From the NCBI GenBank assembly GCA_000002435.2, contig CM018789.1: 64,000 nucleotides of DNA. One strand, given 5' to 3'. The notes beneath the pieces were generated by a model. The model had not been told where the DNA came from, did no database searches, and was given only the letters and a program-made list of their open reading frames with translations. Shown here piece by piece: positions 37-46,477 of this stretch (position 1 is its first letter; each line of letters begins with the position of its first letter). Source of the DNA: Giardia intestinalis. Its lineage: Eukaryota. The position numbers and the translations under genes were made by a program.

Positions 37-2739
37 ATGCACTCGTATAACAACCAAACAGTCACGATAAGCTCATCCGATATCGCGAATAAGCCCCTCT
101 CAATGCCTAGTGGTCCACTTACAAGCTCTAAAAAGAACGTCCCACGAAGTACCAGTGTGGAAAGTAAGGGAAGCCTACTCAGCGGAGTGAGCTCGGGTAT
201 ACGCATAGCCACCAAACTTAGCACGGATTCCAAGCTGAGCCAAAAGAAAATAGTTAACCTTGTTATCAAGGATGTCACAAATAATAGTTCATTAATGCAA
301 GATAGTCAAGCAGACTCCATAATTCATAATGAGCAAAATGATTCTTTTCTAACTTTTACGAATGACAGGGCCCAGAATGCCTCAACTTCGGCTTCTTCTT
401 CAATCAAAAAGGCATCTGGAGCCCGGAAAAAAGTAGATATAAACGGTTATGTGCCAATTACTACGAAAGGAAAAGTCGAGACTGTTACAATCAATCTACA
501 TCGAATGGATACGTCCCCTATTCGCCCCCGTTCCCCAGTACACTCATCGTTTAACGAGGAGCCATCCCAAGACTCTATTATTCATGGTGCCCACTCTCTA
601 GAGCCAATTGGAGGGGATTCGTGTTCCATGTCTGGATTGGAAGACTCCGACGAGGCAGTATCCCCTTCAAATTTAAATTCGACCAACAGCAAGCAACCTA
701 AGAGTCAGACAAATGGACGAGACTATCGAGAGTTCACTAAGACTCCGTCGATCAATACAATTGTCCCTCTTGGCACAGCAGCGGGTACATCTGCGGAGCC
801 ACGTAGCGTCGCTACTGCGTCATTAAGCATACTGACTGCTCTAAGGGCATATCACATTGTTACTACCAGGAAACGGATGATTAAATCTAAATTGCGGAAC
901 ATTGGTCCCAGTATTTTGGAGCCTGCGCTTGCTTCACAGTTATATAGATCATCCCACTACACACATCTGGTCTTCCGTTGGTGCCTCATTAATGAAGATT
1001 TTGCCCACTATGTTGGATCTATTCGACGACAGAGACGGGTCACAACGCTCAACCCCATGTGTGAGAACTACAAGTGGATTAAGGACTCGTTAGGGTTTCA
1101 TAATATAACCATGTACCTGACATCCATGCTGATACGCGATATCTTAGATTGCATTCCCTTGCCAGATAAATCTAATAAGGGCAAACTGGTTCTTCATAGG
1201 TCAAAGGGTGGTGCCATTAAGGATGTAGAAGTGGATCAAGAAGCAAGCACAGAGGACCTGGTAGCGCCGGACGGGCCTTCGTTACTCAACTCCACTGATA
1301 TAAGCCTGACAGCGTTTGTTATTACCGGATTTAAAAAGTTACTGACATCAATTGCAAAGCTATCAGATATCTTCAAGTATCGCTCCCCCGATGACAATAT
1401 GAATGAGCCTCTTGATACTGAAACAGCTCTGGGTACGGTGGACAAGCATGTCACTTTATCACTGACACGGAAACAGTCCCAGAAATGCAAGAAGAAGTCG
1501 TCTATCCAAGTGTCTCCGAAGCCAGTTGCGTCCCCATCATACTACAATCTTTACAATCTGCGGCGGATTGTCTCTCAAATGTATAGATACCTGTATAGGT
1601 ACGCGGATGCGGATGGCTCTGACCCTTACACGATCTTGAACAAGCTAGATCCTCTGGTATTTAAGTCTTTATCTACTAGGCAGCAAAGCTACTTGTCACA
1701 CAACCTTCAGCGAAGTAGCGCCGTCTCTCTTCAGCACACCCATATCTCTGTTTTTACCGACTCAGAGCTAGATGCACAACAAGACATTGATGCGTGCATA
1801 GATAATTGGCTGAGCCCCGGTCAGTCACAGACACCTGAAAGTCCTAACTTTGAACCACTTGTTTGTGACAACAACTACGATATCAATACCAACATCCCGG
1901 CTCTGGCCGTTTATCATTCATTCAATAGTGTGTTTTGGAGCAGTACTATCAGATCAGAGCATTTAAAAGACTACCTTTTACCCCATGACCAGCTCTTTCA
2001 AACAATCGTCACCAAGGATATATTGCACAACCATTTTGAGCCCATTCGAACTAATTCCCTAGGGACAGCAACTGCTAGTTCAACACAGGATCTAGAAGGC
2101 GTCAACGATAGTAGCGCAATGGGGAGTCACTCTTTTAATGTACCGCTTGATATTTGGAAAGATAGCCAGATCTCAGATAAAGCCTTTCACGATTTGTCCG
2201 ATGGGCATCTCACCAATATCATACCTGGGAGATCTGCCGTATACCGCTCTCAGGCGCTCAAAGTAACAGATGATGGCAACCTTGCTATTCGGCAGCAATC
2301 GCATCACGAGCTGGGGGATTTGCTGGCAAAGATGTCTGTTCACATGGATCAGGGTACTCTTGTTGTAGGCTCTACTGACTCGGGCGCATACACCACGGGG
2401 TCTCCTGTCTCTAAGCCCCTCTTTCTATCTTCTCCCAGCCTTATAGATCTTCCCTTATATAAGTTTCTTGTACCGGATGAGGCCGCTGGCTTGGACCTAT
2501 CTTATAAAACATTTGGTGCAGGCTTGAGCAACGAACGTCTAATATTGAATACCTACTTTTATACCAATAGGTTTTTCATCCCACAACCAAATAGATTGGC
2601 TATGTTTAATATCTTGGCAATATCTGGCGGGCTGTTCATGAGCCGAGACGAGCGTCTATCGATGGAAACAATCATGCGTGAAACACTTGCATGTCTACAT
2701 TTAACCTATTACGATCTAGATTACTACTATTATACTTAG
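37..2739 (+). CDS. hypothetical protein with a Ser/Thr-rich N-terminus; possibly 5'-partial
   Basis: 900-codon ORF from ATG at 37. The frame stays open upstream to base 1, so the true start may lie outside the window. No domain recognised. Stops 39 bp before the next gene. Confidence 0.5.
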   Translation: MHSYNNQTVTISSSDIANKPLSMPSGPLTSSKKNVPRSTSVESKGSLLSGVSSGIRIATKLSTDSKLSQKKIVNLVIKDVTNNSSLMQDSQADSIIHNEQNDSFLTFTNDRAQNASTSASSSIKKASGARKKVDINGYVPITTKGKVETVTINLHRMDTSPIRPRSPVHSSFNEEPSQDSIIHGAHSLEPIGGDSCSMSGLEDSDEAVSPSNLNSTNSKQPKSQTNGRDYREFTKTPSINTIVPLGTAAGTSAEPRSVATASLSILTALRAYHIVTTRKRMIKSKLRNIGPSILEPALASQLYRSSHYTHLVFRWCLINEDFAHYVGSIRRQRRVTTLNPMCENYKWIKDSLGFHNITMYLTSMLIRDILDCIPLPDKSNKGKLVLHRSKGGAIKDVEVDQEASTEDLVAPDGPSLLNSTDISLTAFVITGFKKLLTSIAKLSDIFKYRSPDDNMNEPLDTETALGTVDKHVTLSLTRKQSQKCKKKSSIQVSPKPVASPSYYNLYNLRRIVSQMYRYLYRYADADGSDPYTILNKLDPLVFKSLSTRQQSYLSHNLQRSSAVSLQHTHISVFTDSELDAQQDIDACIDNWLSPGQSQTPESPNFEPLVCDNNYDINTNIPALAVYHSFNSVFWSSTIRSEHLKDYLLPHDQLFQTIVTKDILHNHFEPIRTNSLGTATASSTQDLEGVNDSSAMGSHSFNVPLDIWKDSQISDKAFHDLSDGHLTNIIPGRSAVYRSQALKVTDDGNLAIRQQSHHELGDLLAKMSVHMDQGTLVVGSTDSGAYTTGSPVSKPLFLSSPSLIDLPLYKFLVPDEAAGLDLSYKTFGAGLSNERLILNTYFYTNRFFIPQPNRLAMFNILAISGGLFMSRDERLSMETIMRETLACLHLTYYDLDYYYYT

Positions 2740-2778
2740 TCACTTGTAAACAGATTACGAATAAATTTTAGTTCCAGG

Positions 2779-5700
2779 ATGTTTAATGAAATTCTCACCA
2801 GAATACTGACCAAGTATATAAACAAGTATGTGTACGAGCTGAACTCCGCCAGCATGCGCAGCAGCCTTCTTCGCGGGATTGTTGAGCTGAGCAATCTCTT
2901 CATCAGACCAGAGGCACTGGATATGCTTCAAGGAGTTCGATTGGCGTTCGGATACGTTGAACATATGTCCTTGCGGATCCCGTGGCAAAGCTTCTGGAAG
3001 GAGAATATTTCCATAAAGGTATCAACAGTTTATGTGGTGGTTTACGGCTGCAGCCCTGACCTGACAGAGGATGCTATCAGGCAACAAGTACTCAGCAACT
3101 TCAAGAACAAGTTGAAATCGTTGATTCGAATGGAACAGCGTATTCTAGAACAGAACAAAGAGCAAATCATGCTGGAGGTAGGTACTACGGCTAAGACAGG
3201 GTCGCAGAAAACAGGAAAAATGAAACGGTGGATACTGTGGCTGCAAAACCTTGCCATAAACAACATCTCTCTAGCTATTAACAATGTAGCCATCTTGTGG
3301 TCGGCCCCTGAGTTAGGGGGAGTGTCTGGAGCGCTGTGTCTTCAGAGTATGCTCATAGCCACTGCAGATAATTCTGTTATAGACAAGTCAGGGTTGAAAG
3401 AAAAGGATTGTATTCTTAAAGATCTGGCTTTTCGCTATTATCTCGTCAGTGCGGATGAGCACCCTGATCACAACTATAACAGTCTCGCTGAATGTGAAAG
3501 GGGGCTCTCATTTTGGCGTCCTCTATTCGAAGGCCCAGCCTATATAACAGTGGTTGATCCTCTTCAGGTTACCACTAGAATACAGCTGTGCCGTAACTTT
3601 GCTCATGAAAACAAACCATTTGTCACCATCCAGTTGCAGATTCCTAACCTCTGCGGCTGCACAGATCTACAGACCATATTATCACTTATAGAATCTTTGA
3701 ACAAGAGCATGGCCGCTGGCGAGTTTGCGTTTGCGCTAACAAGTAATGAGATAACGCATCTAGGTAAGAATAGTTCGCCAGATGATGCAATAAGATGCCT
3801 GGGAAAAGTGTTAATTCGTAGCCAAGCCATAAGCAAGATAGAGGCATTGGTGTCAACTGAAAGTGGGGGACGATTGTCCTCATTGAAAGACCAACTGCAT
3901 AGAACCTTTAAAAAGCACTATCTTTCGCATCTACGATGCAAGTACATCATGCCGCTATTGCCCAAGTATGGTGATGCACCTGCCGTAAGTACATTCAATG
4001 ACGAGTATCTAAACGCAGTGCAGGACGTTATCGGTTATGCAGGTCACTCCGCTCAAACGCTTGCCGAGCTCACGGCATCTATCCCTACGCCTGTCATAGC
4101 TAAACTGCAACAAGAGTGTTTCTCAGCATTTCTTCACAATTTGCCAGAGAACATAGAGCAGTCGAAACGTGAAGCTTTGACAAAGGAATCGGAAACCAAT
4201 GAAGACAGTACACCAACAAGGCTGAGCAAGAAAGATTTAGCTGAACTTCAGAAATTGGCAGGTGTGCCATCTAAATTAGACATTAGTGACATGGGGAACA
4301 GCTCAGATTCCGGAGAAGAAAGATTGGAACTCGTTAAAATTGTTGCATACCTAAAGGGAGTAGACATCAGTGTTTGCGAAAAGATTGCTGACTGCTCCAT
4401 TGGTTCCACATCTGCCAAACTATTAAGGTTATCTCTACAGACAATCAGTTGTGCGTTTAGTCTTTTTAAGTCGACAGACTTTACATTCTTATGCGAGCTG
4501 AGCCGCATTCGAGGAGAATGCGCAGCAGTAAAAGAACCGGTGTTAACTACACTCAGCGAGTCTTCTGCCTTTTCTATAGAAATCTGCAGCCCTGGTCGCT
4601 TAGGAGGATCCATGTGCATTAAGAGTCTACTTGTGCCTATTCAGGTGATGTGCGTTCCCAGCCTGCTACCATTTGTAGTCAACTTGATGACCGTGTTACA
4701 AAACACGTTCTCTAATAATGTCAAAGTGCCTATACAAAAGGCTTCGTCACTGGATCTAGTTACGCTTTATAATGAGATTGACAAGGGCATCACCACTTTT
4801 CTTCAAGAACGTGCCGCTACCCTTGAGCTAGACCTTGAGCTGGGCGCCCCAGTGGTCACAATCTCCGCTCCAACAATAACTTCGCTTAGCTGCTCACTCG
4901 GTCAAGTGTCCATTAAATCCTTGCATTTTCTGTCAGAGATAGACCATCCCAAACTGACACCCAAACCCCAAACACTGGTACTATTTGTGAAGCTAAGTGA
5001 TACAGCCATCAGCATGAAGAGTAATACCAAAGATGGCTCAATTGATGGGGGGACTATAGAGACACATGTGGAGGAAGAGACTATTGTAAGGCCGTGCTCA
5101 GTAAGCATCTACTTACAGATTCCCTTGGTAACTGGTCCAATGATCGCTGATGTATCTCAAAGTCTATTCGATATTGTGCTCACAACAGCCAGTATCCAAT
5201 CGCTGATGCTCTTATGCAGTAGATATGCTTATGAGTTGCTTCACATACCGATCCACAGACAAAACGCAATGAACGCAGTAGCGCCGTCATTGCACCAAGA
5301 TCACCAAGGTACCTCAGTACAACAAAAACCTGATACGGAAGATAGACTAGAGCAAACGATGCTGCTACTGCGAAAGAACACAGCCACAGTTATTATTACT
5401 GTAACTTTAGAAGGGGCAAAGCTGGCCATAGGAGACGCAAAAGAAGTTGAGGCTTATGTCGGACAAGGATATCTTGAAGTGTATGTTATGACAGCGCAGA
5501 ATAAAACCAGTTATGCCAAGTTCAAAATGAGCATGCTCGACTTCTTTGTTTGCGGTACTCCGGTAGCCTATCTAACAAGCGAAACAGAGGACTACGAGGA
5601 CGACAAAATAGCCTCGGGATCATGGTCAATAGATAAAGGAATCACCCTAAAGCTCGCGATTGGCATGTTGCACATTATTGCAGATGTAATACTCTTCATC

Positions 5701-8700
5701 AGACTAACTTCTGTGTTAGAGAAACTCTTGCAGTCTTACACTGATGCAGGACTAGCCTTGCTATGGAGCCAGATATCTCATAAGTTTTCTTCTTCGCAAG
5801 CCCCATCTCGGCCGTCACTGCAAGAGCGCAACGAAAGTACCATCGCTCTACTTGTAGATTTTGCTGGATTGGAGATTCATCTACTGAGCACTCCCTATCT
5901 ACTCCCAATTTCATCTGACTTAGAACTGGCCTTAGATTTAAACATGGACACTGCTCTTATCTGTACTGCTAGACTGAAGTCTGTATACTTTAACATAGTA
6001 CTTGATTCCACCGATGTATTCATTAACTGGTCTTTCCATGAGTGCGTCATTGAAGGCTCGGAATCAGAGCCAGCTAGAGTCACCATGCTGCAGTTCATAA
6101 CACCGGTTACATCAGAGGTCTGCGCAATAGGATGCGTTCACCTTTATAGCTGTGTATCCTACGATCCAAATCTGCTTCTCCACGCCCAGATAACTAGTGA
6201 TATTTTAATTACTATCAATGGGCGCTTGGTGCAATATCTGTTGCATAGTGGAGGTCTTCTAGTAGATTGCCTACTCCGGATTAAGGAGTTACTGGGGGGT
6301 GATCTCAAGGTTCAGTCAGCGGGGAATACCACAGCCAAGAGTCCATCCCGCATTTCCTGTAACATCTTCTCTCCCTCATTCGAGATAAGTATCCCGGTTC
6401 AGGCTGACTATCCCAGCCCGCAATTCTCTTTACATCTAATCAACTTTGAAATGTCCACAGACCAAGCACCAGGATCCCCTACCATTAGCCTATATGGATG
6501 CCTTGAACAACTGCTCTTTGAGTTTGTGGACACAATAGAGGGACATGGATGCGCTCACCGTACAATTTGCGCATACGACAGGTTAGAAATTTTGATCGAA
6601 AGAACGCATAGAGTGTACCGTCAAGAAAGACGTGATATCTCTGACAGTCCGCAAGAGTGTATCCTTTTAGCGCACCAGCTCATTGCCATTGGCCTACCAG
6701 AGGTCATCTGCGTATGTCTTACTCCACAAATGCTTCACGCAGCAATGGAGTTGATTGGTGCAGATAGAAATCTAGGGTTTAGCATTGTGGACGATGCCGA
6801 CGAATCAAAGTTGCGAAGCATCAAGCAGACTATAGACGCCCGCGTAGAAGATGGTCAAGCGCAAGATGGTATTAGTGGTTCAGTAGACACAATAAGGAGC
6901 ATAAATAGATTGCTAGCACACGACTTCAAAGGGTTTTTAGGACAAGATATAATGTCTACCCGTGCACAATTAAAGCTTGATGATTCCTTTATAGATATGA
7001 TTGAACAGGAATATATTAATGCTTCTAGTACAGTAGACGAGGAACATGCACAGTTGGATCACTTGAACCAATTCTGTCCACCAGTAGTCAATACCTTTAA
7101 AATGTCATTGTGCACCTTGCATGTGAAGTTATTGGACAGGACAGGGACCTTGATTGATTGTAAGCTAAACAAAAGCAATATAACACTGGAGCGGACAGCC
7201 GATCTACAGGCGAGTGGATTTATAGAATCGCTAACCCTGAAGGCCACAGAATCTTTATTTCCTCTCTTCAGCATTACTCAAGTGACGTTCCAATATAAGC
7301 ACGACTCCATTCATAGGCAAGCGACATTGCTGCTAGCACAGAAAGCAAACCTCACGGTAGTTGTGGATCACATAGCTATTAGCATGGTCTTCTCTCTATT
7401 GGAGTTGGTGCATACGCCATCAGCAGCATACATCTTGGCCCGTCAGGCAAAGCAAGAACTGGTTAGCTCCATCAATGAAAAGGTTTCCGTTCTTCAAGAA
7501 AGAACTACGTCACAGATGAACAAAAGAAATGTCTCTCACGCTCTACTCTCTGCTCTCCACGTCTCTCAAACGAAGAAAACCGTAACAACAGATAAGCCTA
7601 CAATGGAGATAAGACTTTCTCTGCTCACAGTCAAATTTGTAATTATTGTGTCCGTAAACGGGCCAAAAGAAGGAAGCAAACTAGAATCTCTTGAACATGT
7701 AGCGCTTCATGCAGATATAAGTATTGTCACAAGCACATCTTTCAGACAAAAGTACATTATCAGTGAAGCCGAGTGTCGAGTGCAGGATTTCTTTAAGCAC
7801 ACCGAACTATGTGTTGCCCTAAACTTAGATAAGTGCAGAATAACTTCATGTCTGGCTGGGTGGGAGACCGGAGCTGAGAGCATGCAGTTAAATAACATTA
7901 TATTAGTGCCAAAACTGTCGTGCACCTTTACCGCAGTTTCTACAGATATGCAGGGGAGTTATACGGAGGATAACAGACAAAAGGATATTGTTTTGAACAA
8001 GCAGTCTTCCTCAATGGATGTGACAATCGAAAAACAAGCCGAAATAACTATCTCATCCAGGCTCCTCTGTGTGTATCTCCTTGCCAAAGAACGACTTCTC
8101 GGGGCTATTCCAAACAAAATAATTAAAGAAACCAAGCAGATTGCAAAAGAAAAGTTAGAAAAAATAAAATCCAAATCGATTGAATTTTTGAAAGGAGCCT
8201 CCGATTTCCAGGCAGAAAAAGTGGGTAATGCCTTGGTAGATGCCTTTCCTACTGCCGTGCTCAATGCTACTCCTATTATGGTCAGCGGTTTTCATTTTCC
8301 TGTCTACACCATATCAAGCAAGACAAAGGTTGAACTATCTTTCAAAAACCATCCGTTGTTAGTATCACTTACCTCTTCACAAAACATGTGGCCTCTTTTT
8401 ATTGTTGGATGCAATGACATTCGATGCATATATGAAAACGTGCCGGAAGCAGACCCCAATGTGCCTCATCAAACGCTAGCTCTGACAGCATTGTTGTATG
8501 CAAAGTCTTACAACGAAGCACTGAAGTCGTATGACGCCCTGCTATGCTCGACTCCGATAGCGCTCAGCTATAAACTGCAATCAAGATCACTTGCCTCAAC
8601 TGTTGCTGCTAACGAAGCACCAGTGGACACGCTGTCTATGCACAGCACATACAAAACCATATCTGCAGAAATCTCTATCTCTTTTAGTGTCCAATCCGAA

Positions 8701-11700
8701 CTCCTTGTACTTCTCACCCCAACGGCACTGCTTGCTATGATGCATTTCATTGGCACTTTTTCTATGCCAGCTTCTAAATCACTGAAAGCGAATAATGCAC
8801 AGAAAAATACAAACCTAATATTAGAGCGTCAATTTGGCGAAGATGAAACAACAGACCAGTCTCTTATCTCATCTATCTCTGCCGCCTCTCCTCAGTCAGC
8901 AGAGTCTGAAGGACAGCAAGTAATAGAATTCTATCCTAGCGGTATTGTCCAAGTGGTTAAAGTATATAGTGGCTCGTCAGAATGCAGCGCCCACTCAGCG
9001 CTGGGAGGAGCCCTTGTTTTTTACGTATCCTTAAGCAAAGTAGAAGACGCAAGCATGTGGGTTGAATTGCTAAGTGAAGGCGTAATAAAAACAATTCAGC
9101 TTCCTCTGTGCATTCTTCTATTTCACGAACAGTATAATATTGACGAAAGTTGGGGATTTGTGTTTATCAACCAGAGCTCCAGGGTTGAGGTGCACTGTCT
9201 CTCCACCTGTATTCTATTGAATTACACTACACGCGATTATTCTTTTATAGCGGAAGCTCCCATGAGTAGCTCAATCAGATCAACCGATCAGCTGAACAGC
9301 TCCACGGAAACCATGAGCACTATGCTGTCGAGTATGCCAAGTACTCACTCGACAACCGTGTGTACTAGCGTAGAGTGTAACGGCCATGATAGACCTCAGC
9401 TGTCAGGGACCCTGGGCAAGAGTTCATACGTTTCTGTCCCCACAACAGTAGTATCTCTTCAGATTTCCTACAAGAACAACAGTCCCTTGGAACTGCTCTA
9501 CTATTTGCATCACCCAGCAACAAATCCACTGGAAACATTCATAACAGAGAAGGGATATGAATACCTGAAGTTTGTGGTTTTCACAGTACATCTATTCGGC
9601 CGTCCTACGCAAGTTATTCAATTAGTTCCAACGCACTTCATCACAAATGGAATGCCATGTATAGCAAACTTGAAGTTAAGCTATATGCGGGCAAGAGATA
9701 GTAACTCCGAGCCGGAGACAGGAGAACAGACGGCTGCTCTTGCTCCAGTAGAAATCTTTACGCTGAATACATCGCTTAAAGATAAGATTCAGTTAGCATC
9801 ACTTTCAGTTGAGTTGCAGTATGGCGTTGAATCTTATAAGTATATCCTCAAATCCACATATAGCCTAACCTACAATGAAGACTCTATGCCAGCACAACCC
9901 GTAGCTTTGGACCTAGTGCCGGCGCGTCAAGACAGCACAGAAGTGTACCACTGCAATGTTAGCATAAAGAAACAGACCATGAAGAAGACCACCAGAGTAG
10001 ACATATCGCTGCTCAAGGGGCTATATGCTCCCTCAGCTGTCGAAATAAATATCTATGCGACTGCCCTGTTACAAAACAATACCGCACCGGAGCTTTCGTT
10101 TTGCATTTTCCGCCTGGATAGCAAGTACGATAAAAGGACTCAGATTACTAGCTTAGTGAAGTATGAGGAGGCATCTATCATATGGGGCAAGTATTCTGAT
10201 TCAATAAAGCTGAGTGTATCTGTGTTGCCAATCATGCAGAGCGGCAGTCCCATTCAATATCACAAGTCAGACAGCTTTCGGCTGTCAACAGTTGCAGGAT
10301 ATCGCTTGCATCGCATGCACACTAAGACAGAAAGGAAGAAAGTGACACTATTTGTATGTTCGATAAGCAAGCAGCTAAAGGGCTCACCATCAATGATATA
10401 TACATTGCAGGCAGCAATGAAGGTGAACAATTGGATGCCGAGGCCGATCAATGTGCTTATAACTCCCTGGGATCATAAAGATAAGACTGCACAAAAGGTA
10501 GTATGTGCCAATTCAAATGCTAGTGTTTCAGTATTTGAGTTGCCTGGCATCAAAGAAAGATTGGTAGACTATGCTATCAGGTTTCCAGAGGACCAAAAGG
10601 ACCTTCTTAAACGGCTTAAAATAGGATACTCCAAGGAGCTACTTCATATAGATTCTTCCTTGGCAGTTGTGGAGGTCCATTGCACAGAATACAAACTTGA
10701 TATTACAGTTCGGCCCCCCACAACAATTGACGATGTTCAGCTAAAAGTATATAACTCCTTAAATCTAGACTTATATTGCTCTTACAAGCATAGCTCACAG
10801 CGCACGAAGTATACCGTTGCATCTAAGAGCACAGCGACACTCTACTTCCTACTTTCTGACTTAGACTTCTATCATCAAAAGTCAAACGGAGTCTTTTCTC
10901 AAATATTCTGCATTAAGATGGCACCACTTAGCACAGATGTGGAGTTTTACGACCCACGGTCAAAGAAAAAATGCCACGCAAAGCTGCTCATTGGAGAGGG
11001 TGCTATCCACTGTAAAATCTTTTCAGATAATGAGACCTTACCAGAGCCAGCTATAGGCCATTATGATGTTAACCAGAGAGTGCTTATTAATGCAAATCTA
11101 GAAACGAAAAAGATAAGGGTTCTTTTGGTGGGGCCAGATGATAGTGATTTTTCCCGCAGAAGAGAATATGTCTCTCTCAGTACAGCATTTGTAGATATTG
11201 TTTGTTTGGTGAGCGCACAATACTACTTAGTAAGTGCGCAGGTGGGGCAAGTGTCCCTTGAAAATATCTTAGGGTTGACCAATCAGCCGAGAATATTGCA
11301 CCTAAAGCCTGTTAAGCCCACTAAAGGACCATATCAAAAGAGGTCTGCGCAAAAGTTATCGTTAATAAAAAACCCGGAGACACCTGCTATCATGGCTATG
11401 GCCTCTTTATCTACGAACCTTTCTATTTTAGACGTAGATCGCTTCAAAATCAAGATGGGTAAGCTGAACATCCACATTGATCAATCGACCATAGATGTCA
11501 TCCTCCGGTTTCTTCGGATAAATGCGCTGCTTTCAATATCCTTTCAGATTGAGTCTACGGAGTGCCAGTCACTACAAGCTGAAATACATTATCTTCTATC
11601 CCACATGAGCAGAGAGGACAGCAGATACTATGCACTATTGCGCAAGTTATGCAATTCTGTATTTAATGCTACAACCCAAGCAGAAGCATGCGAAAATAGC

Positions 11701-18385: not shown

Positions 18386-21023
18386 TTCTTAAAACCTCCC
18401 CGCAGAATTTAGAAAGGTGATGGGCCATATGTAGGACATGTGGCAAAGATATTGCTTGTGGCCAGTTGACGTACCCGTATGCCATCGCATTTGTCAGCTC
18501 AATGAGCTGATTAAATGAGTCGTTGTCTACTGAGGCCTCCATGGAGTCAAATATGATCTTGTAGCGGATTGGCTTGGGAGTTGTTCCGTGAACTATCGCC
18601 TGACTGGCCATAAGAAACTCGGATCCCTGCTGTCTATTGTCCGGGCTACGGTTAATCACATAGTACCCTGACCGTAAAACAGTACCCCCAACAGCGGAAA
18701 AACGCATAGCGCACGTTTTCTGAGCAACTATAACCTTCAGGTCACACATGGGACGGTTGGATTTGTGATATATTTGACGCAAGCACTCATATAACGACTT
18801 GATTTCTACCTCCAAGGTGGCGCTGATTTGGCTGTCTGATACCCCATCCCGGAAGATGACAATGTGGTCTGGTAAGATCCTGTTATTAAATGCAAGATAC
18901 ACATTACAAGAGTTCTTAATGAAGGCCTCCATAAGAGTTTGCTGCTGGAGCTCTCCCCCATGATTCAATCTGTTTGGCACGAGAGTCTTCTTTTGAGAGT
19001 AAATGTACTCAAAGGAGCCATCATACGTAGATATAAATCCTGCGGTTGATATGGGCACCTCTGCCGGCCTTCCTACGGTCTTCTTCGGGCGAGAGATGTC
19101 AAGTGCACACAGCATCGTAGATTTGGAGTATACATTCTGCGGGGGGAGTACGGGAGCCCACACAGCCCCGCCTGCTTTAGCATATATTTGTTGGCAGACG
19201 CTCCTGAGCACTGCTTGGTCATACCACTGCAGCTCATTTTGAGATGACTTTGGGGCCAAAAGGCACTGGGTAACAATCCCCATATGTGTATAGAATTGCT
19301 TGATACCTTTGTACAAGTCTCCACGATCCTGCTTAGGTCCTGGAATAACGATCACAACAAGTTGAATCTTGGCCACTATCTCACTCTCTCTGGCATCTTT
19401 GTACTCTAATCTAAGCTTATTGAGTAGCGCTTTGAAGGCGTCCTTATATGGTTCCACCCTGTACATCTCACGTCGCTGGTTGCTCAGCTCGACTGCTATA
19501 AGTGGCGGGTCTCCGATGTTAGGAGCCGTAGTGCCTGCCAAGGAGCGAACTCGCTCAGTAAGTTCTTTCCTAAGTCTTCGTGCATAATCATTCCCTAAGT
19601 TCCGTGGAACCATTATCGCCCAAACAGGCATGCCCGTCGCAGGCTGATTGTTATTGGAATAGTAAATCGGAGACACTCCGGGTGATTGGAGAAGATTGTG
19701 AAAGACACCCCCACTATCATCTTCAATGGTAACTATACGAGAGGTATTGTCCATCATGAGCTTGGGGGGCTTGCAGACAAATGTCTCCAGTTCCAGAGGA
19801 TTGCTGGTGAAGCCGAATCCATAATCTCCCAAAAGAGACTGCAGCTCTGTGTCTTCCGCAAGTCTCGCAGCAAACGCTGTTGCTTTTTCGAGCAATGCAT
19901 CTGGGCTCATGGTGCTCAAGGCGACAGCTGCCCTATTAGTGCTGAGCTTGGAGACACCGTAGGGGGCAATTTCATTGTCACTTATAATAATACAAAGGGA
20001 TGATGGTACATTACAAGGTCGTACAACCTTTCCGTTTTGAGTCCTCTTAAGTGGGGTGAGTTTAAGGATGAACTTGTCCTGCTGCATTACAGAGTTACAA
20101 TAATCGTTGTGTCTCAGTAAGGAAAGTCCAGCAGAGTCAATCTTATCTCTATACCTAGTTGAGTAGTAGGTAAAATAGTCTGTTTCATTGCCGTTTGCCA
20201 GTGGCGAGACAATGGTCTGCCCCTGAACTATAGAGTGGACTCTGAAAACCTTTCCGTTGTGCATAGCCATCACAGTGATGACTGCCAGTGCACTAGGGTG
20301 GATGTTTCCACGTCTCTCGGTAAGAAGCTCATTCATGGATTTGGAACGAACCTTTGTTGTTTCTGGAAGGATCTGAAGCCCAAGCTTCCCACGCAATGTC
20401 GCCGTGGTGAGCCGGAAGCCGGGGATCCAGCAGATGTCGTATCCTCTTCCATCAATCTGAATTGCGTGTATAGATGGATTCCTCAAATCGTAAAATCCTG
20501 AGCGAATATTGAGCATACCAAGAGAAGATTCAAAGGTACGTCTAAGTAAAATATTTAGTAGAATCTTCATGGACATCAAGTCCGTGGGATCCATTTGGCG
20601 AACCCGAGTAACCTTGACAGTAGCTTGAACGGGAGTAATGGGCGGTCCTGCTATGTTATTTCGCATGCCCCCTACTCGCCCACCTCTCCTCCTCGGTTTC
20701 TGGGTTGACAGAAATTCAACTGTATGTGTTATAGGCCTGGATCCCAGGTCAATCTGGGAGTAAAAGGAAGATATCGGGCAAGCGTCACTACTAGGGAAAT
20801 CTATAATCAGAGAGTAAAAAAGGCCGTGCTCCAAATTATTTCCAAGGGCCGCGTCCTGTTGCTCGCAAAACCTCTCCAAGGCCCTACAAGAATCTGCGTT
20901 GTCCAGGCTATAGCCTTGATTTGATATATGTATTGAGAGATCATACTGATATACAGGTCTAGCAGATGGTAGAACAGTATACGGATAAAAGTTAATTCGT
21001 GAGGTGACAACATCTGCTACCAT
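18321..21023 (-). CDS. AGO: Argonaute/PIWI protein
   Basis: 900 aa. PIWI domain with [13 protein letters not shown] (first catalytic Asp), [12 protein letters not shown] (RDG Asp) and [15 protein letters not shown] (His), so the DDH triad is intact. A PAZ-like region lies upstream. The 900-aa length matches the single Giardia Argonaute. Initiator tataaaaaactttgtaaATG. Confidence 0.85.
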
Positions 21024-21270: not shown

Positions 21271-23973
21271 TTAAGGCTCCTGCTCCCCAGGGGCAGCCCC
21301 ACTTCGACCATCATGCGTTACACTAAATCCTCCCCCAACCATTCTGGATGCCGGGCCAGACCCGGAATTTGCTGGCCTAAAGCCGTTTATGCCGCCTTCA
21401 GTGGCTGTCCCGTCACGGAGCATTTGCTCGTATTCTTTCTTCTTCAGAGAAAAGTACTTGCGCTTCATGTCTTGCAGATCACGGGTAAGCCTTTCGATGC
21501 TATCTTTGTACTCGCTAGACTGACTCTGGTACATAGCAAGCTCGCTGCTCAGAGTCTGCAGTTGTCGCGTCTTCGTCTTCAACGCATCCTGATATGCAGA
21601 GAGTTTTTCCAAAACCTCGGACCCTGGTTGCCGCGACAGTACCTTTTTCAGGTCATTGTAGAGCTTCTCCTTTTCTTCTAGCTCAAGATTCTTAGTGGAG
21701 CATTCTTCGGACTTCTGGATAAGTCTTCGCTGGAGATACTGGGTCTTCTTGATCAATTCATATGCTGCAGGATCGGATCCTTCCAGCGAGCGCCATCTAT
21801 GGATATTTACGGGAAGCTGCAGTTCTTGAGACAGCGCCCTGGTCTTTGCGCGCTCGTCGAGCAGGTCACGTTGCAAGCGGTAGAGCTCCTTTTTGTAGGG
21901 TTCTATGCTGGCGGCTTGTCGCCGAAGACTCACTATCTGTCGGCGCAAGTCTGTGATCTTGGCCCGAAGGAGACGAATATCCTCTATCCTGTCTGAATAC
22001 TGCTTTTCTCCCTTTGCCAACGTTGCTTGCTGCACTCTGACACGTTCATAGAGGAGGGAAAGCTCATCATTACGTCGTATCAATTGCGTTCCGAGGATGT
22101 CACGCTCCGATACAACAATACGATACTCCTTCATCTGCCTGTCTCTTTCCATATCAGACTCCGTTATTATGCAATTTAGCTTGGCTATCTCAGTCCTCTG
22201 GATTGCTAGAGCCTCCTCTGCTTCTCGAACCTGCTGCCTGGTCCTCTCAAGCTCCTGGACAGTAGAGTCCTTCTCCTTCAACGCGCTCTTGTGGGCAAAG
22301 TGCTCCTTTAGCAGGCTCTCATCTTTTGTTTGTATCTCCGATTTAAGCTGGTCTATGACGTGAGACAGAACACGAAACTTCCTCCTTAGTTCTGAAACCT
22401 CGTCCTGTGCCTCCACAAGGGACTTTGAGTAAAGATTCCTGTCTGAACGAACACTCTCATAGAGAGCCTGTTGCTGTTTTAGCTTCACATCCGCGTCCGA
22501 TACCCTTTTTTGAAGATCTGAGATCGCTAGATCACGGACCCGTATCTCCTGCACGGCCTGAAGATACTTTTGCTGGGCCTCGGTGGACTTTTGGGAGAAC
22601 ATTTCCCTCTCTTTTTCAAGCGAGAAGATGATTTTGCGCTGCTTTTGTGATTCATTTCTAAATGAGAGTATCTCTTGCTCGTAGTTTTTGGCTTGGTTCT
22701 CCATACGCTTTAGTAGATCGTCCTTGTCTGCTATGGAAACTTGGGCAACATGAAGCGATTTCCCAACAAGCTGAGCTTCTCGACTCAGCTGATCGTGCTC
22801 GCGGCCAATTTCGTTATTCTCATGCTTAAGTTGCTTGAGCTCTTGTTCAGCTTGCGTCAGCTGTCCCTTGAGCTGCTCTACCTTCTCTTCTGTATTATGC
22901 TTGGCTATCTCCAGCGAGTCCAGCTTACTCTGCAGAGAAGTGAGAGTTTTTTGGGCTTTTGCAGCCTCTGCTCGAGCCTGTGCTGCCTCTTGTAGATGCT
23001 GTTGGATCTGTGTTTCCTTCTCGGCGTTAGAGCTCTGTAGATTAGTGGATTGTCTGTTTGCTTCAGAAAGATCGGCCTTTAGCTTGTGTATTTTGTCCTG
23101 TAAAGAGCTTATTGTAGCCTTTGTTTTCTGGAGCTCTTCATATTCTTGTCCAGATCGTGTTTCGGCTTTGGTAAGCTCTGTCTTGAGGTGATTCACATCC
23201 TGTTCCTTGTTGGCTATATCTCGCTCGAGGTTCTCACACTTTAGACGGAGGGATGCTAGCTCACGGTCCAAATGCTCCCTACGCTGTAACTCCCGGGCTG
23301 CCTCAGATCTGTGTTGCGCGACCTGCTCTTTCAGCGCACGTACACGTAACTCCGAACTGACCTTTTCAGACTCTAGTTGTTTAATGCGATCTAGATGTTG
23401 ATTAAGCTCTTCCCGGAGAAGAGAAATGCGCTTTCCTCTGTTTTCGTACTCCTGTTGCAGCACTGCCTTCGCTCTCAGAAGGTCTTCAATATTCTGTTCT
23501 TCTGGTACTCCTACGTTAGTTCCTGCTGTCGCTGTATCTATCATCCCTCTAAGGGATTGGACCTCGGCTCTCAATTTATCAATCTGCTCGGTTTGAACTC
23601 CTTCCTTCTCACGTGCCAAATCGACAATCTTCCATGCTTTGTCTATTTCTGCCTTTAGTGAAGAAATGGTTGATTGATCCTCCTTTGAAAGCCGTAACGC
23701 AGTCTTTATCTTCTGATTATTGATGCTCAGATTCTGGGCTAGCTCTCTTACACGCTGTACAAGAAGCTTCTCGTTCTCGTGCGATTTTCGCAATGCTGTG
23801 TGAAGCTTCTCGTATTCTGTCCGAAACAGGTCTAGAGAAGAGTCACCAACCAGTTCGGCCAAAACTTCGTGGAAGTCTCTCTCAATGGCCGCAAATGCAG
23901 CATCATCGATGGCCAGGTCATATGCCGCAAGTGCCTTCTCGTCTATCTGGATAGGATCGGGATTATCTGCCAT
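21271..23973 (-). CDS. long coiled-coil protein, CFAP58 (CCDC147)-like flagellar protein
   Basis: 900 aa, almost entirely heptad-type E/K/R/Q/L-rich sequence. The N-terminal block AIERDFHEVLAELVGDSSLDLFRTEYEKLHTALRKSHENEKLLVQRVRELA...SKEDQSTISSLKAEIDKAWKIV resembles the conserved N-terminus of CFAP58 as I remember it. C-terminal Gly-rich tail. Confidence 0.6.
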   Translation of the reverse strand: MADNPDPIQIDEKALAAYDLAIDDAAFAAIERDFHEVLAELVGDSSLDLFRTEYEKLHTALRKSHENEKLLVQRVRELAQNLSINNQKIKTALRLSKEDQSTISSLKAEIDKAWKIVDLAREKEGVQTEQIDKLRAEVQSLRGMIDTATAGTNVGVPEEQNIEDLLRAKAVLQQEYENRGKRISLLREELNQHLDRIKQLESEKVSSELRVRALKEQVAQHRSEAARELQRREHLDRELASLRLKCENLERDIANKEQDVNHLKTELTKAETRSGQEYEELQKTKATISSLQDKIHKLKADLSEANRQSTNLQSSNAEKETQIQQHLQEAAQARAEAAKAQKTLTSLQSKLDSLEIAKHNTEEKVEQLKGQLTQAEQELKQLKHENNEIGREHDQLSREAQLVGKSLHVAQVSIADKDDLLKRMENQAKNYEQEILSFRNESQKQRKIIFSLEKEREMFSQKSTEAQQKYLQAVQEIRVRDLAISDLQKRVSDADVKLKQQQALYESVRSDRNLYSKSLVEAQDEVSELRRKFRVLSHVIDQLKSEIQTKDESLLKEHFAHKSALKEKDSTVQELERTRQQVREAEEALAIQRTEIAKLNCIITESDMERDRQMKEYRIVVSERDILGTQLIRRNDELSLLYERVRVQQATLAKGEKQYSDRIEDIRLLRAKITDLRRQIVSLRRQAASIEPYKKELYRLQRDLLDERAKTRALSQELQLPVNIHRWRSLEGSDPAAYELIKKTQYLQRRLIQKSEECSTKNLELEEKEKLYNDLKKVLSRQPGSEVLEKLSAYQDALKTKTRQLQTLSSELAMYQSQSSEYKDSIERLTRDLQDMKRKYFSLKKKEYEQMLRDGTATEGGINGFRPANSGSGPASRMVGGGFSVTHDGRSGAAPGEQEP

Positions 23974-25529: not shown

Positions 25530-27190
25530 GTGAGCCATTGCCGCTCTGAGTAGGCCTCCCGCTCACCGCCCGGGATCCAAATCCAGAGTCCGAAGCTCGG
25601 ATGCCCTCGATCCCGGCGGAAGAACATCTATGCCTCGTCTCTCCTAGAAGCTGCCGCTCCTCGCGGTGCCCCCTAGGACTTTCCTTCCTCTGGCCCGTCG
25701 GGGTCAACTACCGTCTGGCACTGGTGGGCACCTACTATCTCAGGGCCTTGCGTCAGTCGCGGCGATCTAGTCTCAAGAGCAATTGACTCTGGCAATGTAC
25801 TCCAGGATTGCTTCGTGGTGCTGATGCTCTACGACGAAGATCCCACGCCACGACCCCGGGTGTCTACCCCGTTCCTCGGGGTGCTTCTTCGTCTCCTCAT
25901 GGATTGCACCATCAGTCCCGAGTATGACCGGAGGGTGCGCTCCTCGTGCGCCTCTGTCTTGGAGTCATAGTACGCGTTCGTGGATGCCGGCGGAGTACTC
26001 CCATGCGTTGGCGTTGGAGGAGAGGTCTGGCTTCTGGTTTGCCCTCCTATTCATGAATCACAGTGCACTCTTGCAGCTGGTCCGTCACCCAGCACGAGAT
26101 CACATCGACGCTCACCCTGTGCAGCGTGTCTGGCTTAGCTGACCTGTGGGCTGGTCCATCTGCACAGCACACTTGGGGTGATGCTTCGGTCTGTCGAGGC
26201 GTCGTCCAAAGCACCAGGAGCGATCAGGACCGGTTCACCGTCAGGCCGTCTCTCTCTACAACCGGCACCCGTCTACTCGATGGTGTCAAGGGATTACCAA
26301 CTGCTGCGGCAGACGCCAGACAGGTGTTCCAGGCCGCCACTCTTCGGTGCAGGCAGGATCAGTCCGCCTCCGTCAGCCAAGCACCCCAGGGGCTCCATCT
26401 CTTGCCGAGGGATTCACATAGGCCACGTGCGGGTCCATCTCGACCAGCGTGGCGAGTGATTAGTGCCATCACTGGCTTCGGCCCTCCGTTGCCCTGGGAG
26501 CTCCTTCGACCGGCCAGGAAGGAGGCCTCCTGCCCCTCTGTGTTCCTATACTTGTCAGTGTTGACCGTCGAGCCATGTTGCTTCACCAGGCCTGCCGCCT
26601 CTGTGACTACCCCCGCCACGTCATTGTTGCTACTATGGAAGATGAGTGTGTCGTCGGCATGGGCACTGAGCGGGGTCTCTCCTCAGCTCCTGGCGAGCAG
26701 GTTCTGTCCCGCGCAGCACAGAAGCATGCGCAGGGCCCCGAGGGACCGAGTCCAGGGGTGCAGCGTGGCGCAATTGGAGGAAGGCCTCGACGCAGCTCCT
26801 CAGGACGGGAGCACACTCGCCCGGCAGAGGCCGTCTGCTGTTGGGGTTCGTTATGTCGAGCAAGACCGCTGTGCCCATCAGCCTGTGTCTCCCTGTGCCA
26901 TGCGAACGCCACCATGTGCAGTCGGTGGAACGCAGTCTGCTCGGTCTCGAGGAAGACCAATGTCTGGGTCTCCAGGAGGCTCGGGACTGCCTTGTGGAGC
27001 GCATCATGATCGTCCACCGATTGCACTTGCCCTGTCTCGTCCTTGGGAAGAGGGAAGAACAAGAGTTCTTCTTCTCCCGGCGGAGTCGCTTGGCACTTGA
27101 ATTCGAACTCTGAATCTGGATCTTGGTTGATGCAGGGGCGAGAGGTTGCCAGCCTAAGACGGCGATGGCTCGCATGGGAGACCTGTTCAG
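25530..27190. other. GC-rich, ORF-poor island of unknown nature inside a roughly 2.1-kb divergent intergenic gap (ncRNA, decayed gene or foreign insert)
   Basis: Roughly 1.7 kb that is visibly more GC-rich than the flanks, about 60% by eye. All six frames carry only short overlapping ORFs whose translations are Pro/Arg/Ser/Ala-rich low-complexity junk. Followed by a 200-bp AT-rich stretch before DPM1. Sits between the starts of two divergent genes, which are normally under 250 bp apart. Confidence 0.5.
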
Positions 27191-27403
27191 ACAGCAGTTG
27201 ACAAACCAACTTCGGTGAAATAGAGTAAGTGGTGCATCTGTTCACTTACTTCTAGTTCAGCACCTATTAGGAATCGTACTAAAAAGCGTGAGAAGTAGTG
27301 CAGAAGTTTTAGTACATAAGAGTAGATATCACAAGACCAAAAAGTGTTAACTTGTAGCAGTTTTCCTACAGTAGCTGTATAGTTATCAGTACAAAACAAG
27401 CAT

Positions 27404-28165
27404 ATGCTTTACATCATTTTGGCCACCTATCATGAAGAAAGTAACATTGGGGCAGTTGTTTTTCACTTGGTTCGTATACTTGAAGAGCCCTTCTTCCTTA
27501 TTATTGATGATTCCGAAGATAACAGTACTCGTGTGGCTGTTCTTCAGGCTTTCACAGCGCTACGGTTCAGTAACTATAAGTACATTCACCGCGGCCAGAA
27601 GCGTGGCTTGGGGACAGCCTATCGTTGCGCTATGAAAGAACTTACTGCCCTAGCAAGCAATAATGTCAACGAGGCGGATGACATGGTAGCCATTTTAGAT
27701 TCCGATCTTTCTCATGATCCTTGTGATATTGCGAAGCTTGCTACATGTATGCGTGAAACTGGAGCCGATATTGTTGCCGGTTCGAGATATCGGACCGGTG
27801 GATCAGTCTCGGGTTGGCCTCGTCGACGAATAGCAATTAGCTCTACGGCGAATTTCCTAGCACAGACTGTTCTAGGAATCCGGGTGACTGACTGCACCAG
27901 CAGCATGAGAGTCTATAAGCTTTCTACGATTATGTCCATCATTGACCAAACAAGATCTACGGGATTCTCAATTCAGCTAGAACTCATTTCGTTAGCGAGT
28001 ATGTATGGCTATAAACTGCTTGAAGTCCCGATATGCTTCTCCGAGCGCGTCAATGGAAGTAGCTCGTTATCATGTAAGGAAATTTACAAATTTCTGATGC
28101 TCATTGCCCATCTGTGGTGGAAGCAGCGTACCAGCGAGGCACGCAGAACGCTTTGTGGTCAGTAG
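27404..28165 (+). CDS. DPM1: dolichol-phosphate mannosyltransferase (DPM1, GT2 family)
   Basis: 253 aa. Motifs ILATYHEESNI (TYNEREN-like), RGQKRGLGTAY, DSDLSHDP, DIVAGSRY..GG.V.GW, TSSMRVYK and EVPICFSERVNGSS match DPM1. Confidence 0.8.
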   Translation: MLYIILATYHEESNIGAVVFHLVRILEEPFFLIIDDSEDNSTRVAVLQAFTALRFSNYKYIHRGQKRGLGTAYRCAMKELTALASNNVNEADDMVAILDSDLSHDPCDIAKLATCMRETGADIVAGSRYRTGGSVSGWPRRRIAISSTANFLAQTVLGIRVTDCTSSMRVYKLSTIMSIIDQTRSTGFSIQLELISLASMYGYKLLEVPICFSERVNGSSSLSCKEIYKFLMLIAHLWWKQRTSEARRTLCGQ

Positions 28166-31100
28166 TCATCGTCTTGGAAATCCATGTCCGACTCCTCTAA
28201 CACCTCGCCTAGGTACTCGACTACCGAGGTCACTAAGTCAAACATAGCGCGATTCTTGCGAGTGGAAAAGACATTATGCTCGATCATGCTCCCTAGTAAA
28301 TGGCTTGCAATTTCCGCTGCTGTTCTATTCTCCCACGGAAGCGACATCATTGCATCTAGGGTTTTCTTCATGCCATCATCAAGAGGCTTCATTCCATGCT
28401 TGCCAGAAAACGCCTTGTTATCTGCTAATGCTACGAGAGATGCGCACGATACTTCTTTCAGATTATAGCACAGACGCAGCATCTCCAGGGACGCGTCTTT
28501 TGGAATAACATAGTCCCTAATGTCCTTCATACGCTCAACAAAGTGCTTCAATTCGCCGTGCTCATACGTCTCAAACCGCACTAGATAGTTGCAGATTATT
28601 TGAACAGCATTGGCGAGGATGTGAGATTCTTCTGGATTGGTAAAATAGTTCTTAAGCGTCAGCGCATAATGAAGAAGGTTTCCGATTTGCTTCTCGCTAT
28701 AGTATGGGCTTTTTGGAAATGCTCCAGTATCGTGGACTATAATTGCGATCACACCCATTAGATATGCAATCCTATATCCAGACGTAGCCTTAAGGTCATT
28801 GGCTGTATACTCTACTGAACTTATGGTCGTGCTATAAATGGCGTCCATAACTTCACAACCATCACGGTATGCGTCAGTGACGAGCTCAAGAAGGGCGATG
28901 TAGAAGCGATCAGACACAACCCCTACTGGTGCATAATTACGTTCGAGAGGGTCGGCGGGCCTTGATATTGCCAAAGACGTGTCAGCTGTTGGTCCAGAGG
29001 ACTCTTCTGGCGGAAGGTTCTCTATGGAAGCGAGAGCCGAAATAATTCTAAATATATTCTGTGCCTTTTTCATGATGGCTTGTGACTTCTTCTTCTTTGA
29101 ATCAGTAACATCTGAGGTGATCTCCATGGCGATGACAGCGTAGCTCGTTATGACGCACTCCTGTGCTTTCTCCTTCAGAGGAGCCAGTTGTGCGGCAAAG
29201 AAGGGCGCTATTTTCTTACAAATGATGCTTGCCTGCGACAGATCAAGTACATCCTTCCGCTCAGGATATCTATCCAAGTCATGGTTACCCGACAGGCGTA
29301 GATTGACGGCAGCAAGGTAAAGCAAATCATCTGTCGCTTGTTCAATATTAACGGATGCAATGATTGTTAGCAAGTACGCGACCACGACCGCCAAAGGAAG
29401 CGAGACAAAGGTCTCCTTTGGACTATGGATGTAGAGGTCATAGGTTGTAGTCTTGAGCTGATCTGCATTCAGTTTTAGTATACTCCAAAGAATAGTCGAA
29501 TAATCGTAAATCTCTCCTAGTTTGTCGACGATGCAAACCATCCACCCAACGATTACAGCAAGGCGGCGCTCCCCACTGGTATAGCCTCTCTCGAGACTCT
29601 TGGAAAGCGCTGAGGCCATGTCCCACTCATGAGACACACCTAAAGCTTCCAGTAAAGAAGAGTATCGAGCGAACATCATTTGCACAAGACGAAGAAGTAA
29701 GGGCACGAGGACATTCATCACAAGGTAATCGCTGACTCCATCAGTGTGGTGAATTGAAACATAGAGTATTTCTAAAAGGGCGGACAAGTGGGTAATATCG
29801 GTTCGGCGGAAATAGTAATTAATCTCCTGCAACGAGAGGTTTTTGAATCGCTCCATTAGGGCACCTTTATCGCTTGATTTATTGCTACTGCTGGAGTCAC
29901 TATCCTCATCGCTACTATCGTCGGAACTAGCATGCTTCTCGTCACCACCTTTCTGATTATCTACAGCACCCACTTTTTCAAGCTGTGCAACTAGGTTGAC
30001 CTCCGGAATATTCAGCTCTCCAAGATTCTCCTTTTGAAAGAGAGGAAGGAGCATTTCCTCTGTGTCTTTATCCACGAGACTCTGCAAAAACCTCTCCAGA
30101 TGGCGTGATATGGAATTGGAATCATGATAATTCTTGCGAAAAGAAACCAGGGCATCTACTATGTTGCACCTATCAGGCAACAAAAGATCTATCTGATTGT
30201 CAGCAATTTCAACAGGACCGAACGCTGACAAAAGAGCATATGATAGCTTACAATGGGGTGCAGAAACAGCCTCGAAGCCTTTGAGCTCATCACGGATACG
30301 TGTGGTATATTCTGCAGATAGATTGCGAGAAACCTGCAACTTTCTCAACAGGTAGGTGAGATATATTTTTTTTTCCTCGTCTGTACCGTTCTTCAAATTG
30401 TGGTAGACGTCACTGAATACTTCACAATCTTCTACATCATTTATAAATGCTGACAAGGCTAAGGAGAACAAGCTCTTAGGTGTTGTAATCGAGAAAGACT
30501 CCGTGGCCTTAATATTAACGAGGTAAGTCTTAAGAGTCTCAGACAAAACAGAAGGTTCCAGAATCTCTGCCGTTGCGAGGTAAAGATTCCAAAGAAGTGG
30601 AAGGACGGCGGTAGAGCTTCCAGTGTAGAACAGACAAGAGGGGCTCTTTTTCATTGAAGTGCAGACAAATGCAAATCTATGCGCCACAGACGTTGTAATC
30701 GACCCTATCAGTGCCTCATCTGCATCCTCTACGGACAAGAATTTGCTTAGGAATTCTCTCTGTGCCGGCGAGAAACTGTACAGTAGGAGGGTCTTCCCGA
30801 TGGCGTCAGATATGCCAGTCTCTATGTCATTTGCTGAAGCTGTAGATAGCAATATCATGATACGCTGGATGCAAAAGGTCAAGCAGCAGGACGACACCTT
30901 GTTAAACGTGTAGGCTCCCAGGTCAGATGAATGCTTAGAATCTTCTGCAAACTGATAACAAGCAGCTAGTGTTTTAAAGAACGAAGTGCAAAGATCATTG
31001 AAGTGCTCCAGTGAGTTATTTTTGTTGTCTATCAATTCTCTGTGCAAATCCTCGGTTCTGATGTTTGTTAAACTAAAGATCTCAAAGAAAGACACAAGCG

Positions 31101-46400: not shown

Positions 46401-46477
46401 CACGGTGGACTCTTTGCAATTTGCACTAAAAAGAAGAAGGGCCCGAAAAATTATTAAGACAGCTACGATTTTGATCC

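Follow-up and report, generated by a model that had tools for sequence, protein, structure and literature searches.

A stretch of 64,000 nucleotides (nt) of Giardia intestinalis DNA (GenBank assembly GCA_000002435.2, contig CM018789.1; hereafter the window) carries at positions 2779 to 12603 a gene which a preliminary description, made from the sequence alone, had read as an intronless open reading frame (ORF) for a VPS13-type bridge-like lipid transfer protein of 3274 amino acids (aa). The ORF list and the translation bore this out in every detail. A single ORF spans 2779..12603 on the + strand with 3274 codons, an ATG start, a TAG stop and no intron, and no internal stop codon was present in the 3274-aa translation; an open frame of 9.8 kb in DNA of 44% GC cannot be of chance origin. 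The encoded protein was 100% identical to XP_001707932.1 / KAE8301348.1 / UniProt A8BCL3, named "Chorein", of G. intestinalis ATCC 50803 (WB clone C6), and because this match is exact the gene is already known at the family level, the name having stood in public annotation for years. Literature and supplement searches found no dedicated study of Giardia chorein/VPS13 (A8BCL3, XP_001707932). We are highly confident that the product is the G. intestinalis VPS13 ortholog (A/C/D type), a putative bridge-like lipid transfer protein of ~370 kDa. To our knowledge VPS13 is expected in all eukaryotes, and since the gene is also annotated as Chorein, the identification is correct but not novel; the protein deviates from canonical VPS13 in two conspicuous respects, the loss of the PH domain and the replacement of the asparagine (Asn) in the first repeat of its VAB (Vps13 adaptor-binding) domain. 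The gene and its parts were mapped as follows.

2779..12603, + strand: complete VPS13 ("Chorein") gene (ORF list; identity to XP_001707932.1 / A8BCL3; ratio of non-synonymous to synonymous change, dN/dS, 0.115)
2779..3666, + strand: Chorein_N and first repeating-beta-groove (RBG) domains, aa 1-296, an amphipathic helix and then a beta scoop (Pfam, hhalign, AlphaFold, Foldseek)
3667..8913, + strand: strongly diverged middle, aa 297-2045, a presumptive RBG rod (two colinear profile matches)
8914..11073, + strand: VAB domain, six beta-sandwich repeats, aa ~2046-2765 (Asn at N2148, N2290, N2433, N2551 and N2659; V2062 in repeat 1)
11080..12489, + strand: post-VAB RBG domains and ATG_C amphipathic-helix region, aa 2768-3237 (hhalign, phmmer, conservation)
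12325..12360, + strand: GFFRGLGQGLVG motif, aa 3183-3194 (aligns to GFFKGIGKGLVG of human VPS13A and VPS13C)
12490..12603, + strand: short acidic Ser-rich tail, aa 3238-3274 plus the stop codon, in place of the canonical PH domain

Orthologs that also bear the name Chorein are 82% identical in strain P15 of assemblage E, 64% identical in another G. intestinalis lineage, probably assemblage B, and 26% identical in Giardia muris (TNJ27223.1, 3127 aa); the next relative is a transcript of Chilomastix cuspidata (3173 aa, 20%). The G. muris and Chilomastix sequences were recovered by an exhaustive HMMER search; a separate profile search missed both, though they were in its query alignment. The top matches beyond Giardia were VPS13A/C-like proteins, fungal Vps13 and VPS13D. 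The reading frame is retained in the counterparts from other assemblages of Giardia (3272 and 3255 aa) and from G. muris (3127 aa), with almost no insertions or deletions.

Comparison with the assemblage-B-like ortholog at the syntenic locus L001 gave a dN/dS of 0.115 over the whole length of the gene with synonymous change saturated, and by this measure the gene is under purifying selection. When 200-aa segments were ranked by identity, aa 2999-3198 (ATG_C) came first with 86% and a dN/dS of 0.03, followed by aa 2399-2798 (VAB repeats 4-6) with 70-72% and aa 1-200 (chorein_N) with 69%. The extreme divergence from other eukaryotic VPS13s, and the fact that only one Pfam model matched, under its gathering score, might suggest a functionless giant ORF that is decaying or has been mis-annotated. 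However, dN/dS is 0.115 in the presence of saturated synonymous change, four Giardia lineages and Chilomastix have the frame intact, and the assemblage-B-like contig shows conserved synteny, which leaves this explanation with next to no probability.

At the N-terminal end, Pfam PF12624 (VPS13_N) matched aa 1-173 with an expectation value (E) of 2.4e-14 and 52.6 bits. In a phmmer search of PDB sequences the N-terminus, MFNEILTRILTKYINKYVYELN..., aligned over residues 2-130, starting at residue 2-5, to the N-terminal ends of VPS13A, of VPS13C and of the Vps13 fragment from Chaetomium, and VPS13C was matched at both ends of the protein (E 6e-17). For profile-profile comparison with hhalign, a fornicate profile built from the Giardia, G. 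muris and Chilomastix sequences was set against a template of 47 full-length VPS13s, and aa 1-296 aligned to template positions 1-300 (E 1e-19). An AlphaFold model of aa 1-1200 had predicted local distance difference test (pLDDT) values of 65-84 over aa 1-260 only, where a helix at residues 2-14 was followed by a strand-rich scoop. The top PDB match of this N-terminal model in Foldseek was 6cbc, a crystal structure of the Vps13 N-terminus (E 4.9e-14, TMt 0.68); the Atg2 N-terminal domain came second (E 9e-6), with no others below 0.05. The chorein_N scoop starts with the first residue of the protein and is not preceded by a transmembrane helix; no hydrophobic segment was detected in the first 600 aa. 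BLTP1 (Tweek/Csf1) and BLTP2 (Hobbit), in which an N-terminal transmembrane helix anchors the protein in the endoplasmic reticulum (ER) (PMC7613979), were also considered and were rejected on the lack of a hydrophobic stretch near the N-terminus and on the predicted amphipathic helix (H2-14). The aa 1-296 end is presumed to be the lipid-entry end.

The VAB domain is exclusive to VPS13 and consists of six repeats of ~100 residues with a conserved Asn near the start of each (PMC7068118; PMC7613979). When the Giardia proteins were aligned with those of G. muris and Chilomastix and with nine VPS13s from animals, fungi and oomycetes, N2148, N2290, N2433, N2551 and N2659 fell in conserved Asn columns, three of them invariant and two nearly invariant, each in the expected context hydrophobic-x-hydrophobic-x-N. 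At the repeat-1 position G. intestinalis has Val (V2062) instead of Asn and G. muris has Asp, while Chilomastix has kept the Asn. We regard the Asn pattern as direct evidence, at the level of sequence, for the VAB domain. An AlphaFold model of aa 2030-3229 (mean pLDDT 43, with 60-80 just around aa 2250-2430) was all-beta over ~aa 2057-2749. Internal-repeat detection in the region gave one significant pair only, R3-R5, in register, and sequence-profile comparison of the VAB region alone stayed short of significance (E 0.01-0.1) with all matches inside the template VAB. In yeast the sole adaptor-binding site lies in VAB repeats 5-6 and the repeat-6 Asn is essential (PMC7068118); because repeats 4-6 are conserved in Giardia and repeats 5-6 correspond to the yeast adaptor site, the conservation of the repeats suggests that adaptor binding is kept.

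In the region behind the VAB domain, aa 2768-3237 aligned to fungal Vps13 2641-3082 with an E of 6e-43 by hhalign. Within it, aa 3011-3217 aligned by phmmer to the ATG_C region of VPS13A and VPS13C, with domain E-values of 1e-10 for VPS13C (3457-3584) and 2e-9 for VPS13A, and the helical amphipathicity of this ATG_C region was significant (z ~4). This end is presumed to face the acceptor membrane. The best match to the C-terminal region outside Giardia (E 1e-17) was a 1600-aa protein from a JGI metagenome, P0043, which likewise ends soon, ~40 aa, past its ATG_C match and so could be a further VPS13 without a PH domain, belonging to an uncultured relative.

The PH domain, typical of the family although not universal in it, was not found. 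The GFFxGxGxG motif is followed by 83 aa in the G. intestinalis protein, by 74 in that of G. muris and by 89 in that of Chilomastix, whereas at least 160 aa follow it in 41 of the 43 motif-bearing sequences (the motif being locatable in 43 of the 47 full-length VPS13s). A profile of the PH region did not match the fornicate alignment (E 0.63), and since the next gene begins 24 nt away there is no downstream room for the domain. On this sequence comparison the C-terminal PH domain is absent, and its loss is common to G. muris and Chilomastix and thus shared within Fornicata. No FFAT-like motif was detected by a simple pattern, which is a crude test.

The preliminary description had pointed to an N-terminal chorein-N signature and a C-terminal motif as the marks of a VPS13 protein. 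The signature was confirmed by PF12624 and by hhalign (E 1e-19), the motif was located as GFFRGLGQGLVG at aa 3183-3194 in alignment with GFFKGIGKGLVG of VPS13C/VPS13A, and the structure prediction it had proposed for the N-terminal part yielded a fold matching the Vps13 crystal fragment 6cbc (E 4.9e-14, TMt 0.68). The lack of any significant Chorein_N or VPS13 profile match, which it had named as the result that would count against it, was not what was observed (VPS13_N E 2.4e-14; VPS13C by phmmer E 6e-17; profile-profile comparison E 1e-19 and 6e-43). Its assignment to the VPS13 family is supported by the profile matches at both termini and by the 6cbc fold match. The kind of organism it had assumed was right as well, given the identity to Chorein of G. 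intestinalis ATCC 50803. The Pfam check it had suggested held for VPS13_N (Chorein_N) and failed for VAB, VPS13_M and VPS13_C, which were unmatched up to E 10. Its author was unaware that the gene had already been named Chorein, that the PH domain is gone and that most of the central rod is unverifiable by sequence.

An ortholog of ATG2, the lipid supplier of the autophagosome, would have part of this architecture, because chorein_N at the start and ATG_C at the end are common to ATG2 and VPS13, and ATG2 likewise carries out bulk lipid transfer through a groove. The Foldseek match to the Atg2 N-terminus (E 9e-6) and a weak match of the Pfam model ATG2_CAD at the N-terminus of the G. muris ortholog could be read in the same direction. 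However, ATG2 has no VAB, is much shorter (roughly 1.6-2.3 thousand aa) and partners with the ATG18/WIPI machinery. The presence of the VPS13-specific VAB domain effectively refutes an ATG2 identity; in addition, every significant full-length match was to a VPS13 protein, 3274 aa is a length in keeping with VPS13, the E-value of the Vps13 structure was better than that of Atg2 by some eight orders of magnitude, and Giardia is without ATG machinery (PMC8161075). We consider an ATG2 ortholog very improbable.

From membership in the VPS13 family the middle of the protein would be expected to form a continuous rod of about 12 RBG domains with a hydrophobic groove. Two colinear hhalign matches were obtained there, aa 543-714 to Vps13 514-709 (E 3e-6) and aa 1841-1995 to 1802-1923 (E 5e-4). 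Both came from the 47-sequence template, a shallow profile having detected the two ends and nothing else. The AlphaFold secondary structure of the middle, within the model of aa 1-1200, consisted of groups of long strands broken by helices at pLDDT <50, a confidence too low for a groove to be recognised. Individual RBG domains may keep their structure while detectable sequence homology vanishes (Levine 2022, PMC7613979).

Several results weigh against the reading of the gene as a VPS13 lipid bridge. The two weak profile matches are all that covers ~1,700 aa of presumed groove, and a beta-amphipathicity test of the groove was not significant. Both AlphaFold models (aa 1-1200 and aa 2030-3229) were of low confidence, with a mean pLDDT of 43, and as their input alignments included canonical VPS13s the fold matches cannot count as evidence wholly independent of the sequence alignment. 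The VPS13_N score falls under the 80-bit gathering cut-off, because just the first 165 of 1317 model positions align. With the whole protein and six segments as queries (E up to 10) VPS13_N was the sole Pfam match, the VAB and VPS13_C models remaining without a match even at E 10, and Pfam was equally uninformative with the G. muris and Chilomastix orthologs. The repeat-1 Asn, which is important for adaptor binding in full-length yeast Vps13 (PMC7068118), is replaced here, and the choice of partner organelles, taken up below, is guesswork.

These same features of the middle could mean that the protein has kept the VPS13 ends and the VAB domain and that its chief work at contact sites is tethering or holding adaptors as a scaffold, the middle having drifted so far that it conducts bulk lipid less well or no longer. 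Profile comparison barely recognised aa ~300-2030, the beta-amphipathicity signal was weak and AlphaFold was unable to model the middle. However, the middle is still under purifying selection, with a dN/dS of 0.08-0.18 in 200-aa segments with unsaturated synonymous change; central length is kept across the assemblages, and the predicted groups of long strands fit RBG units. We judge a protein working mainly as a tether or scaffold to be unlikely.

Yeast Vps13 and human VPS13A and VPS13C have the same order of elements (chorein_N, a long rod, a six-repeat VAB, further RBG domains and ATG_C with GFFxGxGxG) and a similar size (3.1-3.8 thousand aa), and Giardia has also kept the Asn of repeat 6 (N2659), on which adaptor binding critically depends. 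Unlike these proteins, the Giardia protein has no PH domain, a Val in place of the repeat-1 Asn and no simple-pattern FFAT motif, and its rod has diverged past routine sequence detection, with the Pfam VAB and VPS13_C models silent. There is a precedent for a PH-less VPS13 as an accepted variant in plant VPS13X (At3g50380; Levine 2022, PMC7613979), which is known as a VPS13 by its VAB repeats. VPS13X differs in being shorter (nine RBG domains), in carrying an inserted lectin-like domain and in having three helices that replace the PH domain (PMC7613979), whereas the Giardia protein has the full length and closes with a short acidic tail; the PH losses in VPS13X and Giardia were presumably independent. 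G. muris Chorein TNJ27223.1 and the Chilomastix cuspidata transcript are colinear orthologs with the same PH-less ending and the same Asn pattern in VAB repeats 2-6, and differ by their low identity (26% and 20%) and by the repeat-1 residue (Asp and Asn, respectively).

On the upstream side 39 nt separate the stop of the preceding ORF from the VPS13 ATG, and on the downstream side the ATG of a ferredoxin-nitroreductase lies only 24 nt past the VPS13 stop. This ferredoxin-domain nitroreductase gene (12628-13422, +) is also adjacent to VPS13 in the assemblage-B-like contig L001. None of the flanking genes is related to VPS13; besides the nitroreductase they encode an S9 peptidase, Argonaute, CFAP58, a DNAAF11-like protein, a NEK/ankyrin kinase, a GT2 glycosyltransferase, phosphatidylserine decarboxylase and an uncharacterised 2915-aa protein. 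Further ORFs of the window were likewise exact GL50803 proteins. The second giant ORF (53330-62077, -, 2915 aa) was considered as a further bridge-like protein and rejected, as it had no Pfam, PDB or VPS13-profile similarity. It corresponds to GL50803_0016492, "hypothetical protein", with a hydrophobic N-terminus and a weak Guanylate_cyc match (E 0.019) near the C-terminus. The phosphatidylserine decarboxylase gene (45156-46403, -; PF02666, E 4e-40) lies ~33 kb from VPS13, and linkage at such a distance in a eukaryote is probably meaningless.

GL50803_0022543 (28159-32091, -; 1310 aa, hypothetical) falls in a 90%-identity cluster that includes fragments of 36-55 aa labelled Listeria monocytogenes or L. 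innocua, which suggests contamination of Listeria assemblies by Giardia DNA or an artefact of clustering. Three ORFs were of exactly 900 aa (37-2739, +; 18321-21023, -; 21271-23973, -); one is without a Pfam match, one is Argonaute/Piwi and one is CFAP58, and the equal length of these unrelated ORFs is a coincidence. A GC peak of 0.54, against ~0.46 elsewhere, at 26001-28000 falls on a pair of opposite-strand ORFs that overlap each other, 26063-27100 (+) and 26607-27245 (-), neither of which gave a Pfam match.

VPS13 proteins are the archetypal bulk lipid bridges, and yeast VPS13 is able to replace ERMES at mitochondria. By analogy with the family, the N-terminal end of the Giardia protein would dock on the ER, phospholipids would slide along the hydrophobic groove of the diverged central rod, and the C-terminal end would be set on an acceptor organelle by a protein adaptor at VAB repeats 5-6 together with insertion of the ATG_C helices. 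Because the PH domain is missing, VAB and ATG_C should be the only elements on which targeting to the acceptor relies.

In Giardia the attachment of mitosomes to the ER is constitutive, with no tether or lipid route known and no identified ERMES or EMC (PMC5377515; PMC5142787), and a 2023 paper left open whether Vps13 serves this role in metamonads (PMC10648710). The core ATG autophagy machinery is missing from Giardia (PMC8161075). The literature searched agrees with the remark of the preliminary description that the partner organelles are an open question (PMC10648710, PMC5377515). Since Giardia is without identified ERMES or EMC and without core ATG machinery, one may speculate that ER-associated mitosomes and/or peripheral endocytic vacuoles are the likeliest acceptors; because VPS13 has endolysosomal roles elsewhere, the peripheral vacuoles would, again speculatively, be an equally plausible target. 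We tentatively propose, as a possibility that we hold with considerable doubt, that the PH-less VPS13 could be the missing ER-to-mitosome and/or ER-to-peripheral-vacuole lipid conduit, recruited by lineage-specific adaptors at VAB repeats 5-6.

The family picture is unchanged by the Giardia gene. Because VPS13 can replace ERMES in yeast, the mitosome tether has not been found and the 2023 paper left the role of Vps13 in metamonads open, the gene is a sensible and unexploited candidate for the mitosome tether or lipid route, and the domain map, with the VAB kept (repeats 5-6 best) and the PH domain and repeat-1 Asn lost, guides the choice of sites for tagging and mutation. If the proposal were true, this protein would rank among the very few bridges for bulk lipid in a minimal endomembrane system without identified ERMES, EMC or ATG2, and would provide a clean model of VPS13 function without PH-domain inputs.
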